From the IMG/VR virus record IMGVR_UViG_3300037631_003085: a stretch of 64,000 nucleotides of DNA; one strand, written 5' to 3'. Positions 2,240 to 56,770 of this stretch are shown here, piece by piece. A program made the translations under genes and the position numbers. Within the stretch, counting starts at the first letter, position 1. Each line of letters begins with the position of its first letter. The DNA comes from an uncultured virus (IMG/VR IMGVR_UViG_3300037631_003085) (Duplodnaviria > Heunggongvirae > Uroviricota > Caudoviricetes). The notes under the pieces are model-generated. The model had not been told where the DNA came from, made no database searches, and saw only the letters and a program-made list of their open reading frames with translations.

Positions 2240-2614
2240 ATGTCTGAAAAGATTTATGTCCGTAAAGTAGAGACTTGGACAATCTCATCGGCAAGTGAAC
2301 CTATTGAGGTTAACGTAGAAGCGCTTCGTAAATGTGAACCCCCATACGAAGGAGACTCTGACCAAGAGTTAGTTAACTATCTTCAAAACAACGTATTCAT
2401 GGAGTATGAGTTCTACGAAAACGAAACCAACATCGAGGCGTATGGTGAAGATGCTGTTTTTGACTTGGTTATGGAAGAGGCATATGTAGACAATGAGTTC
2501 TTTGATTCACGTAATAAGGGTGAAGAGTCGAGTCTTCAGATAGGTATTCCCGATGAGGAGTGGTCAAAGTATGGTGGTTTCCAACCATTAGCAAACGGAG
2601 AATACGAATATTAA
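2240..2614 (+). CDS. hypothetical acidic protein
   Basis: 124-aa ORF tightly packed in the operon. Confidence 0.7.
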   Translation: MSEKIYVRKVETWTISSASEPIEVNVEALRKCEPPYEGDSDQELVNYLQNNVFMEYEFYENETNIEAYGEDAVFDLVMEEAYVDNEFFDSRNKGEESSLQIGIPDEEWSKYGGFQPLANGEYEY

Positions 2615-2622
2615 ATAGGGTA

Positions 2623-2696
2623 GGACTCGTAGCTCAGCTGGATAGAGCATCTGCCTTCTAAGCAGACGGTCATAGGTTCGAATCCTATCGGGTTCA
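2623..2696 (+). tRNA. tRNA-Arg(TCT)
   Basis: Cloverleaf GGACTCG/CGGGTTC, anticodon arm TCTGC-CTTCTAA-GCAGA, T arm ATAGG-TTCGAAT-CCTAT; no encoded CCA. Confidence 0.95.
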
Positions 2697-2699
2697 CAT

Positions 2700-2783
2700 A
2701 GAGTGGGTAAAAAGTTTAGTACACCTCTGCAGGGGTAAATGTAAGTTACTATTAATAGGACTACGTATCCTAACGACTACTCT
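2700..2783 (+). ncRNA. possible structured RNA inside the tRNA array
   Basis: Closing stem AGAGTGG/CTACTCT, internal hairpins ACCTC-TGCA-GGGGT and TAGGA-CTACGTA-TCCTA. Confidence 0.35.
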
Positions 2784-2788
2784 TATTT

Positions 2789-2860
2789 GCTCGGTTCGTC
2801 TATCGGTTAGGACCTATGGTTTTCATCCATAAAAGAGGGGTTCGATTCCCCTACCGAGTA
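2789..2860 (+). tRNA. tRNA-Glu(TTC)
   Basis: GCTCGGT/ACCGAGT acceptor, TATGG-TTTTCAT-CCATA anticodon arm, AGGGG-TTCGATT-CCCCT T arm. Confidence 0.95.
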
Positions 2861-2864
2861 CAAT

Positions 2865-2935
2865 TGTCCGATGGTGTAATGGCAACACTTCTGTTTTTGG
2901 TACAGACATTCAAGGTTCGAGTCCTTGTCGGATAA
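2865..2935 (+). tRNA. tRNA-Gln(TTG)
   Basis: TGTCCGA/TCGGATA acceptor, TCTGT-TTTTGGT-ACAGA anticodon arm, CAAGG-TTCGAGT-CCTTG T arm. Confidence 0.95.
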
Positions 2936-2988
2936 CTAAGTTTACTAAAGTTGAGTAGACTATTTATTTAAAATTAAATTACAAAGTC

Positions 2989-3246
2989 ATGAGTAAAATT
3001 TCAAGAAGATTATTCCAAGCATTGGAATCAAAATATACGGCAGAGATTATGGATGCAAGAGCACGTATCTCTATCTACTTTGAAAATCCGGTAGCTATCG
3101 GAGAACACCCACAACATACTGAAGAGATTGATTTGTTAGTATCACAGTTGACTGATGCTACTGATAAACTATCTACACTACGTGATAACTTTGGCCAAGA
3201 GTATGGTGAGTTTGATGATAACGACAAACAAGTATTAAAGGGATAA
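2989..3246 (+). CDS. conserved T4-like phage hypothetical protein
   Basis: 85 aa with NPVAIGEHP motif of a small protein I recognise from T4-like aquatic phages. Confidence 0.75.
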   Translation: MSKISRRLFQALESKYTAEIMDARARISIYFENPVAIGEHPQHTEEIDLLVSQLTDATDKLSTLRDNFGQEYGEFDDNDKQVLKG

Positions 3247-3255
3247 TATCCGCTA

Positions 3256-3340
3256 GGAAGATTGGCAGAGTGGTCGATTGCACTGGTCTTGAAAACCAGC
3301 GTACAGCAATGTACCATAGGTTCGAATCCTATATCTTCCG
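3256..3340 (+). tRNA. tRNA-Ser(TGA)
   Basis: GGAAGAT/ATCTTCC acceptor, CTGGT-CTTGAAA-ACCAG, long variable arm GTACA-GCAA-TGTAC, T arm TTCGAAT, G73. Confidence 0.95.
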
Positions 3341-3369
3341 CAATTCGCAGTCAAGTATTTTATATTTTA

Positions 3370-3401
3370 TTTGTTTTATTCAAAAAATTGTTGTATATTG
3401 T
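3370..3401 (+). promoter_or_regulatory. Bacteroidota-type sigma-A promoter for the Gly tRNA cluster
   Basis: TTTG 3370-3373, 20-nt spacer, TATATTGT 3394-3401. Confidence 0.6.
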
Positions 3402-3413
3402 ATAAACAATAAC

Positions 3414-3485
3414 GCGGGAGAAGACTTAAAAGAAAGTCGTCTATCATCCAGATAGAAGGTGTTGGGGCAGTACCAACCTCCCGCT
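3414..3485 (+). tRNA. non-canonical tRNA-Gly(TCC)-like RNA, copy 1
   Basis: Perfect 72-nt cloverleaf: GCGGGAG/CTCCCGC, GACT/AGTC, TCTAT-CATCCAG-ATAGA, GTTGG-GGCAGTA-CCAAC, U73; lacks U8, U33 and TTC. Confidence 0.8.
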
Positions 3486-3488
3486 CAA

Positions 3489-3548
3489 AGAGAATGGTTA
3501 AAGATTGGGATAAGGCCGCTCAATTTAAGCTACCGGTTATCATTCTCT
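3489..3548 (+). ncRNA. possible structured spacer RNA between the two non-canonical tRNAs
   Basis: 10-bp closing stem AGAGAATGGT/ATCATTCTCT with inner hairpin GATTGGG/CTCAATT. Confidence 0.35.
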
Positions 3549-3553
3549 ATAAT

Positions 3554-3625
3554 GCGGAAGAGGAGTTAAGAGAAACTCGTTGAACATCCAGTTCAAAGAT
3601 GGTGGGGCGGAGCCACCCTTCCGCT
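3554..3625 (+). tRNA. non-canonical tRNA-Gly(TCC)-like RNA, copy 2
   Basis: Perfect 72-nt cloverleaf: GCGGAAG/CTTCCGC, GAGT/ACTC, TTGAA-CATCCAG-TTCAA, GGTGG-GGCGGAG-CCACC, U73; covaries with copy 1. Confidence 0.8.
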
Positions 3626-3631
3626 CAATAA

Positions 3632-3704
3632 GCGAAAGTAGCTCAGCTGGTAGAGCATCACCTTGCCAAGGTGGGGGTCGCGAGTTCGAATCTCGTCTTT
3701 CGCT
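3632..3704 (+). tRNA. tRNA-Gly(GCC)
   Basis: GCGAAAG/CTTTCGC acceptor, TCACC-TTGCCAA-GGTGG, GCGAG-TTCGAAT-CTCGT, U73; fully canonical. Confidence 0.95.
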
Positions 3705-3716
3705 CTAAGATTCTTA

Positions 3717-4001
3717 ATGAACAAGAAAGAACACATATCTAAACTTTGGAATAAGAAAGACGTATCTGATATAATTCTGATGATGTATACTCTTATAGAA
3801 AATACTGATTGGGATGTAACTGAGAAGAAGAAGTCATACGCTGTATTGAAGGGTATAATTGCATACACTGATAGGGGTGATGACTTGTTATCACATCATA
3901 GAGATTACTTACACAAAGAATGGAGTGATGCTTGGGAAGACCAAATAGATAACTCAGCAAGAGAAGAAATAAAAGAGTGGTTATTAGGACCAGCACTTTA
4001 A
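3717..4001 (+). CDS. hypothetical protein
   Basis: ORF restarted at ATG 3717 because the track start lies inside tRNA-Gly(GCC). Confidence 0.65.
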   Translation: MNKKEHISKLWNKKDVSDIILMMYTLIENTDWDVTEKKKSYAVLKGIIAYTDRGDDLLSHHRDYLHKEWSDAWEDQIDNSAREEIKEWLLGPAL

Positions 4002-4008
4002 TAAGAAT

Positions 4009-4443
4009 ATGATACATTGGTTTTATGGACAGCCAGGAAGTGGTAAGACCACACTGGCTAAAGCTATGATAAGTAACTCACCTCAATTGGAGTTTAAGAA
4101 ACACATACATATTGATGGTGATGAAATGAGAACTATCTTTAATAATAAAGATTACTCAAAAGAAGGTAGGTTGAATAACTTACGTAATGTTAATAATATA
4201 GCAAGATTCTTAGAATACAAAGGGTACGATGTATTCGTATCAGTTGTTGCTCCTTACAATGATATACGTGATGAGCTAAGGGATTTAGATATTAATTACT
4301 ATTACGTACATACAACTGAAACGAGGGGTCGTGAAGATTACTTTGCGTCTGATTTTGAATTCAACGACTCTGATATTAAAATTAACACAACAAACAAATC
4401 AGTTACTGAATCATTAAATGAAGTATTCACTATTCATAGGTAG
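4009..4443 (+). CDS. cysC: adenylyl-sulfate kinase-like P-loop kinase
   Basis: WFYGQPGSGKTT P-loop, IDGDEMR, YSKEGRLNN and VAPY motifs. Confidence 0.75.
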   Translation: MIHWFYGQPGSGKTTLAKAMISNSPQLEFKKHIHIDGDEMRTIFNNKDYSKEGRLNNLRNVNNIARFLEYKGYDVFVSVVAPYNDIRDELRDLDINYYYVHTTETRGREDYFASDFEFNDSDIKINTTNKSVTESLNEVFTIHR

Positions 4444-4768
4444 GTGGCAACCATGGCACGAAGGTCATCAATGGTTAATTGACCAAGAGTTAAATAAAGG
4501 TAATAACGTTTGTCTTGCTATACGAGATGTGGAGGTTGATGAGAATAACCCATGGACCGCTAAACGTATACAAATGAGATTGGGTCACATTCACTACGAC
4601 TTGATAACTCAAGGTAGAATTAAAACTGTTATTATTCCTGACATACAATCGGTTAACTATGGTAGAGGTGTGGGTTATGACATAAATGAACACGTGCCAC
4701 CACAAGAGGTATCCGACATATCAGCTACTAAGATTCGAGAACAAATGAAAAAAGATGGTAAGTTATAA
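4418..4768 (+). CDS. HxGH nucleotidyltransferase (cytidylyltransferase-like)
   Basis: GRWQPWHEGH and ISATKIR motifs. Confidence 0.85.
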   Translation: MKYSLFIGRWQPWHEGHQWLIDQELNKGNNVCLAIRDVEVDENNPWTAKRIQMRLGHIHYDLITQGRIKTVIIPDIQSVNYGRGVGYDINEHVPPQEVSDISATKIREQMKKDGKL

Positions 4769-5154
4769 TGGAATTAATATCAACACATCCAGTTAAGAAA
4801 TCTGATTTAGGATTTCATGCTAATCTATTTGGTGGTAAGTTACTTGCTTGGTTAGATGCAGCTGGGGCTGCGTTTGCATCTCAAGTATGTGACACTCCAC
4901 GAGTCGTTACTATTAAGATAGACGAGTGTTTATTTAAACGACCAGCACGTGAGGGTCAGTTAATTAAGATATATGGTAGTGTTGCTGAGATAGGGACCAC
5001 TTCGGTTACATTGTATATGGAAGCAAGAGCACATAACGTATACTCAGGTAATCAATCAGTTATACTATCTACAAACATAAAATTCGTAAGGGTAGATGAA
5101 AATGGTGATTCAATACCTATATCGGATAGAGTTCGTGATAAATTTAAAAAATAG
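4768..5154 (+). CDS. HotDog-fold acyl-CoA thioesterase (YciA-like)
   Basis: DLGFHANLFGGKLLAWLD, VT..ID...FKRP, G.TS and FVRVDENG motifs. Confidence 0.85.
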   Translation: MELISTHPVKKSDLGFHANLFGGKLLAWLDAAGAAFASQVCDTPRVVTIKIDECLFKRPAREGQLIKIYGSVAEIGTTSVTLYMEARAHNVYSGNQSVILSTNIKFVRVDENGDSIPISDRVRDKFKK

Positions 5155-15744: not shown

Positions 15745-16374
15745 ATGGATGAACTATACAACACAACACCAACCTCTGCTGGAGTTAATTTAAGTTATCA
15801 TGATACGGATAACTCTAAAGATGGCCATAAAAGTTTTTATCGTGAATTCGATTATGGTATAGACACCACGGACAATGTTATCTTAATACAAGATGAAATA
15901 TCAAGTGGGTTAACATTTGACATTGTATCTAAGGTCAGATTACTTCTGAAGATAAATGGTGATATCAATACTATTAATATATTACTCAACTCTCCTGGTG
16001 GGGATGTAATCGAAACTTTAGCTTTGATAGATTACATGAAGTCTCAAGAAGCTCAAGGTATTAAGTTTAATATCATCGTAAGAGGGTCAGCTATGTCAGC
16101 AGCAGCACTTCTACTTACTTGTGGTACTGGTCTACGGGCTGCATCTAAACACTCTAAGATTATGGTACATCAATTATCAACAGTCGCAGTAGGTAAGTTG
16201 AGTGATGTTAAATCAAACGCACGATTCTCTGAAGAGTTAGAGAATGATTGTAATCAACTTATGGCTGAAAATTCTAAAATGGACAAAGAGTATTGGGAAG
16301 GTATATCTTCTTCAGACTACTTTATGTCAGCAGAAAAAGCACTTGAGTGTGGTATCATCGATAAAATAATTTAA
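15745..16374 (+). CDS. clpP: ClpP-like serine protease
   Basis: LNSPGG, GSAMSAA (catalytic Ser), IMVHQ (His), DYFMSAEKALECGIIDKI. Confidence 0.88.
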   Translation: MDELYNTTPTSAGVNLSYHDTDNSKDGHKSFYREFDYGIDTTDNVILIQDEISSGLTFDIVSKVRLLLKINGDINTINILLNSPGGDVIETLALIDYMKSQEAQGIKFNIIVRGSAMSAAALLLTCGTGLRAASKHSKIMVHQLSTVAVGKLSDVKSNARFSEELENDCNQLMAENSKMDKEYWEGISSSDYFMSAEKALECGIIDKII

Positions 16375-56512: not shown

Positions 56513-56770
56513 ATGTCATACAAACGAGAAAAAAAAGTAAGAAAAGAACGTGAGGAGTTATTCCTATATGGTCATGCTAATGGTGTAAGGGTTATTAATA
56601 ATAACATTGAAGCAGCACTTAGAAAGTGGAAACGTATTATGAAAGATAATGGTGTAATTGACCTTATCAAGCAAAATAGGGAATACACTAAACCGACTAC
56701 ACGTAAACGTAAACAAATGAATGATGCTAGACGAGCTGATTGGGTCCGTAGACAACAAGAAGCAAGATAA
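56513..56770 (+). CDS. rpsU: phage-encoded ribosomal protein bS21 with N-terminal extension
   Basis: V.V.NNNIEAALRKWKR......I......REYTKPT..KR matches the bS21 signature. Confidence 0.85.
   Translation: MSYKREKKVRKEREELFLYGHANGVRVINNNIEAALRKWKRIMKDNGVIDLIKQNREYTKPTTRKRKQMNDARRADWVRRQQEAR

Follow-up and report, generated by a model that had tools for sequence, protein, structure and literature searches.

Glycine tRNAs that serve reactions other than translation have been described in staphylococci. In the parts of the published account drawn on here, NP1-NP3 of Staphylococcus aureus and Ia/Ib of Staphylococcus epidermidis are non-proteogenic tRNAGly(UCC) species that act as glycyl donors for FmhB, FemA and FemB; their T loop contains TGC or TGT, their anticodon stem of 6 bp bears a 5-nt loop, their T stem binds elongation factor Tu (EF-Tu) weakly, and they are preferred by the Fem transferases (PMC7826273). 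According to the same parts, G49-U65/C50-G64/G51-C63 is the high-affinity EF-Tu combination of proteogenic tRNAGly, and S. aureus and S. epidermidis were the only species from which non-proteogenic tRNAGly was known at the time (PMC7826273). Another reaction that consumes glycyl-tRNA is catalysed by the Mom protein of phage Mu, which moves glycine from Gly-tRNAGly onto N6 of deoxyadenosine in double-stranded DNA, yielding 6-NcmdA (PMC13219725, Silva et al., Nat Commun 2026). In the main text of that paper, three Escherichia coli tRNAGly isoacceptors all work, Gly-tRNAAla does not, and residues R111 and S124 of Mu Mom are essential (PMC13219725). Here, we describe two non-canonical tRNA-Gly(UCC)-like RNAs encoded in a 64,000-nt stretch of DNA (the window), which is part of a 172,976-bp, 90% complete virus record (IMG/VR IMGVR_UViG_3300037631_003085; G000). 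On balance, both RNAs are probably specialised descendants of a phage tRNA-Gly(UCC), working as glycyl carriers outside translation that feed Mom-type DNA modification.

G000 comes from a marine phage and is a T4-like myovirus, as evidenced by a Pfam scan of its 228 open reading frames (ORFs), which include gp23 capsid, gp20 portal, prohead protease, sheath, gp32, PolB and clamp loader genes. The record has a G+C content of 35.6%, and nearly all genes are on one strand. A ribosomal protein S21 gene, a T9SS sorting domain and the source of the nearest isolated Mom, a Polaribacter phage, point to a Bacteroidota host.

Two tRNA-Gly-like RNAs and their family

ARAGORN and Rfam identify five tRNA genes in the window, all on the + strand: Arg(UCU), Glu(UUC), Gln(UUG), Ser(UGA) and Gly(GCC). 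The two RNAs lie between the tRNA-Ser and tRNA-Gly genes. Both are missed by ARAGORN in the window and by Rfam at the gathering threshold, much as a preliminary description made from the sequence alone had expected of ARAGORN, and an Rfam search of 3340-3640 at E<=10 returned no tRNA match. A RAGATH-25 match obtained at E<=10 (10.3 bits, against a gathering score of 49) was dismissed as chance. The features are as follows, R1 being a covariance model built from the family described below and applied to viral contigs.

3414-3485, + strand: tRNA-Gly-like RNA, copy 1; 72 nt, anticodon loop CAUCCAG, T loop GGCAGUA, A8/U14; R1 score 100.7 bits
3554-3625, + strand: tRNA-Gly-like RNA, copy 2; 72 nt, anticodon loop CAUCCAG, T loop GGCGGAG, A8/U14; R1 score 92.4 bits
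3632-3705, + strand: canonical tRNA-Gly(GCC), found by ARAGORN; Rfam score 68.3 bits; 6 nt 3' of copy 2

The two copies share one cloverleaf layout, in which a 7-bp acceptor stem is followed by 2 nt, a 4-bp D stem, 1 nt, a 5-bp anticodon stem, a 4-nt variable region and a 5-bp T stem set directly on the acceptor stem, and then by U73. The perfect cloverleaf is the minimum free energy (MFE) fold of copy 1 (-29.2 kcal/mol, z -4.65, 0/200 shuffles as stable) and of copy 2 (-28.3 kcal/mol, z -3.12, 1/200 shuffles as stable). The reverse strand folds too, but inspection of the structure led us to reject that reading, as tRNA-like junctions are present on the + strand alone. The copies differ at 18 positions, 12 of which form six fully compensatory pairs (5-67, 12-23, 28-42, 29-41, 31-39 and 49-63 in 72-nt numbering) and 6 of which are in loops. 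Covariation of pair 31-39 rules out CCA (Trp) as a shifted anticodon. Both copies feature A8 with U14, A33 and D loops devoid of GG (UAAAAGAA in copy 1, UAAGAGAA in copy 2), and both retain G1-C72, C2-G71, G3-C70, C35, C36 and U73. Sequence and MFE folds confirm all these traits, which the preliminary description had listed together with the CAUCCAG loop and the T loops; the downstream canonical tRNA-Gly(GCC) that it had reported is found by both ARAGORN and Rfam. A 3' CCA is not encoded, and the trailers start with CAA or CTA.

Relatives were retrieved with a D-arm pattern, which gave 26 viral contigs, and with a looser pattern, which gave 52 stretches on 51 contigs. R1 finds 94 matches in these 51 viral contigs, comprising 54 distinct rows; the 53 that are full length make up the set used for all position counts. 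Standard pairs fill 99.9% of 1177 pair cells in this set, and 13 of 22 pairs are changed on both sides. The covariation score is 0.534 versus 0.193 in shuffles, none of which (0/500) reach it, and does not exceed 0.132 when partners are slid. A set of 16 distinct relatives has 336 of 336 pair cells paired (100%), and again 0/500 shuffles reach its covariation score. Most loci carry a pair of genes, which either stand 4-5 nt apart or are split by a structured spacer; the genes are always inside a tRNA cluster and on the tRNA strand. A tRNA-Gly(GCC) gene is also found 3' of copy 2 in 8 of 14 related loci (ARAGORN). That the structure is under selection and the RNAs are not pseudogenes, as had been proposed from the two copies, is strongly supported by recurrence in 51 contigs and by the 13 pairs changed on both sides. 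No relative was found among isolated phages (50,697 records searched with megablast and blastn). The lone pattern match among 185,579 species genomes, in a Hymenobacter metagenome-assembled genome, has no R1 match and is not a family member.

The bacterial glycyl-tRNA synthetase (GlyRS) recognises an identity set consisting of G1-C72, C2-G71, G3-C70, U73, C35 and C36. All of these nucleotides are present in 53/53 members. Equally invariant are A37, A8, U14, G19, A21, A44, G45, C56, G49-C65, U51-A63 and G53-C61. Many marks of canonical tRNAs are largely lost, namely U8-A14, G18 (replaced by A18 in 52/53), T54-Psi55, A58 and U33, while G19 and C56 are kept in all members. The T loop reads GGCRGNN versus the canonical TTCRA, with G54 in 51/53, G55 in 52/53 and G58 in 51/53. 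Its GGC is found in 51/53 members; the exceptions are L060:468-539 (TGC) and L088:185-256 (TTC), and the later-found L299 also has TGC. Positions 32 and 38 are C-G in 52/53 and U-A in one, a pairing that can shorten the anticodon loop to 5 nt, which is its size in the MFE folds. Position 33 is A in 32 members, U in 19, C in 1 and G in 1, and position 34 is U in 44 and A in 9. Because U33 occurs in 19 of 53 distinct members, position 33 is unconstrained rather than fixed as non-U. Judged from sequence comparison, what the family keeps and what it varies agree with charging rather than with decoding.

Rare intermediates connect the family with ordinary tRNAs. L088:185-256 features a TTCAAAT T loop, GGG in the D loop and an 8-nt anticodon loop, and L298 is reported as tRNA-Gly(tcc) by ARAGORN, yet carries A8/U14. 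By these features, the family clearly derives from a phage tRNA-Gly(UCC). The preliminary description had counted random reversion of homologues to U33 or TTC as evidence against a special role; U33 proved common, whereas TTC or TGC T loops are restricted to the rare intermediates. Canonical tRNA-Gly(UCC), for instance that of G033 (L217:7716-7790), shares with the family the stem lengths, junctions, NCC anticodon, A37, U73, G1-C72/C2-G71/G3-C70, G19, C56, G53-C61, G26, A44 and G10-C25 with G45. In contrast, family members fail ARAGORN and RF00005, carry A8/U14, lack G18, T54, Psi55 and A58, vary freely at position 33 and have a Watson-Crick C32-G38 pair. The tRNA-Gly(UCC) of phage T4 is a further example of the canonical elongator type.

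The main rival explanation, which we regard as unlikely, is that the RNAs are working if odd decoders of GGA and GGG, that the elbow has drifted as in some organellar tRNAs and that the link to Mom reflects clade descent alone. The derivation from tRNA-Gly(UCC), with intermediates that have canonical T loops and D-loop GG (L088:185-256; L298), and the position of the genes within the tRNA cluster on the tRNA strand suit this view. So does codon usage, as GGA and GGG account for 20.3 of the 69.3 glycine codons per 1000 in G000 and no other phage tRNA reads them. A decoder would not be expected to have A, C or G at position 33 in 34/53 members and A33 in both window copies, to keep C32-G38 (U-A in the sole exception), which closes the loop to 5 nt, or to have A34 in 9/53. 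The replacement of T54, Psi55, A58 and G18 in nearly all members, and a T stem without the tight EF-Tu pairs of tRNA-Gly(GCC), argue in the same direction.

A different proposal is that the RNAs are decoys or replacements directed against host defences that target tRNAs, such as anticodon nucleases and tRNA sensors, and either soak up the effector or escape cleavage. Phage tRNA genes that counter anticodon nucleases exist, and the family keeps both C35-C36-A37 and the core of the L shape (G19, C56, G26, A44, G45 and G53-C61). We know of no defence nuclease specific for glycine tRNA, however, and positions 33 and 34, which are in or beside the usual cleavage sites, vary freely, a poor fit for a nuclease that reads the loop. 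The strict conservation of the acceptor stem and U73 is that of an RNA read by a synthetase, not a nuclease, and the association with Mom reported below would be left unexplained. We therefore hold decoys to be very improbable.

The family resembles the staphylococcal non-proteogenic tRNAGly species, as far as they are described in the parts of PMC7826273 used here, in several respects. Both are extra tRNA-Gly(UCC) paralogues that keep GlyRS identity; both have lost the T-loop TTC (TGC/TGT there; GGC here, with TGC in intermediates); both have a 6-bp anticodon stem and 5-nt loop, and first T-stem pairs outside the tight EF-Tu set; and both are associated with a GNAT-type transferase that uses aminoacyl-tRNA, an association seen here as co-occurrence with Mom. 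The phage tRNA-Gly(GCC), the T stem of which (GCGAG/CUCGU) gives G49-U65, C50-G64 and G51-C63, has the high-affinity EF-Tu combination, and the family differs from it at 49-65 and 51-63 in 53/53 members. The non-proteogenic T-stem pairs are themselves different, being A49-U65/A51-U63 in staphylococci and G49-C65/U51-A63 in the phage family. Moreover, the phage RNAs are virus-encoded, are mostly non-U33, have the A8/U14 swap and have the DNA adenine targeted by Mom, not a peptidoglycan precursor, as candidate acceptor. There is no sequence kinship between the two groups, and the phage family grades into phage tRNA-Gly(UCC); the likeness is in working, not ancestry.

Mom-family proteins as candidate partners

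The genes of interest lie outside the window, and Mom was therefore invisible to the preliminary description.

G000:C1:33024-33785, outside the window: Mom-family gene (PF25680), E 4.4e-43, 147.7 bits (L031:18024-19560 covers this and the next gene)
G000:C1:33769-34563, outside the window: Mom-family gene (PF25680), E 1.3e-48, 165.7 bits
G000:C1:40864-42054 (L032:10864-12051), outside the window: DruA-family gene (PF14236), 396 aa, identified by Pfam

The two Mom genes are adjacent and map about 70 kb upstream of the RNAs; together with the DruA-family gene they flank the PolB region. A profile made from 16 Mom paralogues of the clade matches Mu Mom (PDB 8bv8) with E 1.4e-22. Mu numbering was mapped through the chain index +9 and checked on H58/Y59 and on the alanine of S124A. 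Residues aligned to Mu H58, Y59, R111, S124 and Y159 are invariant (16/16), and the equivalent of Mu D149 is kept in 14/16. In contrast to Mu Mom, D149 is replaced by N in 2/16, the position of Mu R151 is occupied by E or K and is not conserved, and genomes of this clade carry 2-3 Mom paralogues (one in G033). The nearest isolated Mom, from Polaribacter phage P12002L, is 44% identical. The Pfam hits among the 228 ORFs include, to our knowledge of such families, no other recognised aminoacyl-tRNA-dependent family (Fem, L/F-transferase, MprF or cyclodipeptide synthase). ARAGORN, Rfam and R1 detected no tRNA-like RNA within the mom genes (L031:17000-20000).

Mom genes, scored against a PF25680 cut-off of 27.1 bits, were found in all 12 RNA-carrying records that are at least 90% complete: G000, 7/7 of a first set, 3/3 of a further set, and G033. 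The first set stems from the 26 D-arm-pattern contigs, 9 of which carry Mom: G013 (70% complete), G016 (87%) and all 7 with a completeness of at least 90%; among 5 further large RNA-carrying contigs, the 3 with Mom are the 3 that are at least 90% complete. The remaining 19 RNA-carrying fragments without a Mom match (17/26 and 2/5) are not counted against the link, as Mom and RNA are about 70 kb apart in complete genomes. The fragments checked (G007, G017, G027 and G030) end short of about 70 kb on the relevant side.

Conversely, Mom and RNA are absent together from three relatives. G032 (181 kb, 94% complete) features only Arg, Ala and Glu tRNA genes, G034 (169 kb, 93% complete) has Leu, Arg, Ser and Leu, and the third is G064 (145 kb, 86% complete). 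G032 and G034, like G033, were retrieved by way of the capsid protein. A capsid tree of 16 records nests G032 with G000, G016 and G002 (support 99/97) and G034 with G033, G035 and G036 (support 100/99). Because they are nested in different Mom- and RNA-carrying clades, G032 and G034 are two separate co-absences. In a control of 12 unrelated large-phage records, picked by a tRNA-Arg(TCT) pattern alone and thus blind to both traits, Mom was above the cut-off in 0/12 and the RNA was found in 0/12. The search for co-occurring aminoacyl-transferases that the preliminary description had in mind points to Mom-family proteins encoded elsewhere in the same genomes.

A phyletic profile was computed by tblastn with all 228 G000 ORFs (E<=1e-5, at least 40% query cover) against whole records, five of which carry the RNA (G016, G002, G029, G033 and G008) and two of which do not (G032 and G034). 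Only 3/228 ORFs are present in all five and in neither of the two; these encode the DruA-family protein and the two Mom paralogues, Mom A and Mom B. All seven genomes have the genes that separate Mom from the DruA-like gene, among them PolB. RNA and Mom copy numbers are 2/2, 2/3, 1/2, 1/3 and 1/1 by genome, and these unequal counts rule out one RNA per Mom paralogue.

These data bear on the decoder explanation as well, which would not predict that a profile of 228 ORFs picks precisely these three proteins. Furthermore, G033 (175 kb) carries one Mom gene, one family member (73 bits) and, in addition, the canonical tRNA-Gly(UCC); because the latter is present besides the family member and Mom, the RNAs would not simply be the phage GGA decoder. 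For members with U33, the carrier and decoder readings are not exclusive.

A second lineage provides a related case. Four contigs matching a G33-type pattern (G037, G061, G062 and G063) carry tRNA-Gly(UCC) variants with the loop CGUCCAG, and all four have two Mom genes, which are about 8 kb from the tRNA in G061, G062 and G063. G037 features three tRNA-Gly(UCC) genes; two of them, adjacent to each other (L300:853-1001), have G33 and C32-G38 and D and T loops that are otherwise canonical, and the third is canonical. In two of the four contigs (L432 and L433:292-441), the partner gene encodes CCA and combines A8 with a 6-nt anticodon loop. This lineage thus pairs two Mom genes with tRNA-Gly variants that carry G33 or a 6-nt loop, so that a glycine tRNA stripped of decoding features has evolved, or persisted, alongside Mom in more than one form.

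The exact match of the DruA-family protein to the RNA profile in the seven genomes compared raises an explanation that we deem improbable, though not negligible: the RNAs may serve this protein or another phage factor, or act uncharged, for example as a regulator, as a sponge for GlyRS or as a cofactor that lends structure to the DNA-modification module. PF14236 is found in 11/14 clade records and is absent from the Mom-less G032 and G034. The AlphaFold2 model of the protein is of low confidence (mean pLDDT 61.3, core disordered) and gives only weak Foldseek matches (best E 0.26), several of them to GNAT acetyltransferases. Against this explanation, the DruA-family protein is present in G038 and G040, which have Mom and lack the RNA, and is missing from G037, which has G33 variants; because of this distribution, the protein is considered to track Mom, not the RNA. 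It has no detectable sequence relation to Mom (hhalign probability 0.4-1.2%), and no PDB sequence match was found for it. A sponge would presumably have no need of C35/C36 in combination with the complete acceptor identity and a 3' end in a free context. The family bears the name of a bacterial defence system (Druantia).

Promoter-like element, spacer RNA and other genes

Two further features accompany the RNAs in the window.

3370-3401, + strand: promoter-like element; TTTG at 3370-3373, 20 nt, then TATATTGT at 3394-3401; 12 nt before G1 of copy 1
3486-3553, + strand: structured spacer RNA; outer stem approximately 3490-3498 with 3539-3547; optional between copies

A GTATATT(T)GT box with an upstream TTTG or TTG is kept at the equivalent site in 11/14 related loci inspected. 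The element appears to resemble the Bacteroidota -33/-7 promoter consensus, TTTG/TAnnTTTG. A sigma-70 scan of 2400-4100 found 4 sites versus 4.5 expected from shuffled sequence, with none in 3342-3413. The promoter that had been placed before the cluster in the preliminary description gains nothing from the sigma-70 scan, and may instead correspond to the conserved promoter-like box.

The spacer RNA is located between the tRNA-like genes or just 5' of the second one (for instance at L090:463-557, L078:463-542, L088:461-585 and L010:1965-2059) and is missing where copies stand 4-5 nt apart. In an alignment of 12 spacers, the outer stem comprises 10 bp, 7 of which are changed on both sides; the motifs UURAAG, GAUAARRCCG and ACCGG are conserved and the inner hairpin varies. 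Rfam gave no match to it at E<=10.

Just 3' of the glycine tRNA group, the window encodes an APS-kinase/zeta-toxin-like P-loop protein (4009-4443, 144 aa) and a 4HBT thioesterase-fold protein (4768-5154, 128 aa), the phyletic profiles of which are unlike that of the RNA in the seven genomes compared. Elsewhere, a block of about 20 kb (G000:C1:45000-66000; L033) encodes NeuB, a UDP-GlcNAc 2-epimerase, a CMP-sugar cytidylyltransferase, several GT2/GT4 proteins, a carbamoyltransferase and 2-oxoglutarate (2OG)-Fe(II) oxygenases, and its gene content suggests further glycan or nucleic-acid modification by the phage. The phage also encodes ribosomal protein S21, a ClpP protease, GroES and GroEL homologues and a ClpS adaptor (window 56513-56767 and 15745-16371; G000:C1:83357-86636 and 77594-77833). 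In related phages, ARAGORN identified tmRNA genes, with tag peptides ending in AA, inside the tRNA clusters (L217:7242-7636 in G033 and L301:254-624 in G038).

A putative glycyl carrier for DNA modification

The favoured explanation, that of a glycyl carrier feeding Mom, may be laid out in five steps. The RNAs would be transcribed together with tRNA-Gly(GCC) from their own promoter within the tRNA cluster, and would be processed and given CCA as tRNAs are. The host GlyRS would charge them through G1-C72, C2-G71, G3-C70, U73, C35 and C36. EF-Tu and the ribosome would then use them poorly, owing to the free position 33, the C32-G38 pair that leaves a 5-nt loop, the GGCRG T loop without T54, Psi55 and A58, the A18 in place of G18 and the G49-C65/U51-A63 T stem. 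Finally, Mom-family aminoacyltransferases, possibly with the DruA-family protein, would draw on the glycyl ester to hypermodify adenines of the phage DNA. In this way, a heavy demand for glycine in DNA modification late in infection would not compete with phage protein synthesis. As a rough estimate, about 1e5 adenines per genome, at least 1/10 of them modified, and about 100 genomes would call for approximately 1 million glycyl transfers in each cell, comparable in order of magnitude to the glycine of the virion proteins.

The likeness to Mu Mom, that is, the PF25680 match, the match of the profile to 8bv8 and the invariant equivalents of H58, Y59, R111, S124 and Y159, together with the co-occurrence, makes Mom the candidate enzyme. 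Among the three functions put forward in the preliminary description, the glycyl donor for a non-ribosomal transferase has thus obtained comparative support and a named candidate, while the decoy and the GlyRS sponge have gained nothing from the data. A more ambitious version, which we advance tentatively and think somewhat less likely to hold than to fail, is that the virus has evolved an orthogonal aminoacyl-carrier system. The remodelled elbow (A8-U14, A18 and the GGCRG T loop) and the closed anticodon loop would exclude EF-Tu, the ribosome and tRNA-modifying enzymes and favour Mom-family, perhaps also DruA-family, enzymes, so that a private pool of host-charged glycyl-tRNA is channelled into hypermodification of the phage DNA.

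Several observations weigh against the carrier explanation. The anticodon is always NCC, and the canonical CUUCCAG loop occurs in 16/53 members, so that some of the 19 members with U33 may still decode. According to the main text of PMC13219725, Mu uses ordinary host tRNAGly isoacceptors, so Mom needs no such RNAs. The reverse link fails, as G037, G038 and G040 (92-100% complete, capsid 60-62% identical) carry Mom without an R1-family member, G038 and G040 having canonical tRNA-Gly genes alone; P12002L likewise has Mom with no family member and no annotated tRNA gene. The RNA-carrying genomes form one T4-like clade (capsid 57-100% identical), and because of this the independent events are few: the two co-absences, G064 and the second lineage. 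As G032 and G034 have small sets of 3 and 4 tRNA genes, the RNA may have disappeared from them along with tRNA genes in general. The DruA-family protein could be the true partner instead of Mom, since it co-varies equally well. The G49-C65/U51-A63 T stem is predicted to affect EF-Tu on the strength of published rules. Contigs assembled from RNA libraries (4 libraries) cover 3344-3558 (X15, depth 2.35) and 3492-3630 (X17, depth 3.8), and the near-identical contig X18 (depth 7.2) joins 3382-3488 to 3553-3628, the spacer being absent. These low-depth contigs are no evidence of transcription, because DNA carry-over is possible and because ends, strand and CCA are unreadable from contigs.

The use of charged tRNA by Mom has become known only recently, through a 2023 preprint (bioRxiv 10.1101/2023.03.24.534169) and the 2026 paper. 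In its main text, the latter notes that recourse to the translation machinery could harm the phage and proposes late expression as the remedy; the terms 'tRNA-like' and 'phage-encoded tRNA' have 0 occurrences there (PMC13219725). A literature search, together with the main-text passages of the two papers cited here, yielded no account of non-canonical glycine tRNAs that are encoded by phages and linked to Mom.

If the carrier explanation is correct, these RNAs would be the first non-proteogenic tRNAs from outside staphylococci and from a virus, and the first with a dedicated role in DNA modification. A phage glycyl carrier outside translation would represent an answer, different from late expression, to the harm that recourse to the translation machinery could do to the phage. 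The concept of non-proteogenic tRNAs would thereby reach beyond a single bacterial genus to viruses, and beyond cell-wall synthesis to DNA chemistry. As natural scaffolds that are charged by the synthetase yet ignored by translation, the RNAs would be of interest for the engineering of orthogonal tRNAs, and R1 would provide a sequence marker for metagenomic phages with aminoacyl-derived DNA modifications. Since tRNA finders miss genes of this kind, censuses of phage tRNAs undercount them.

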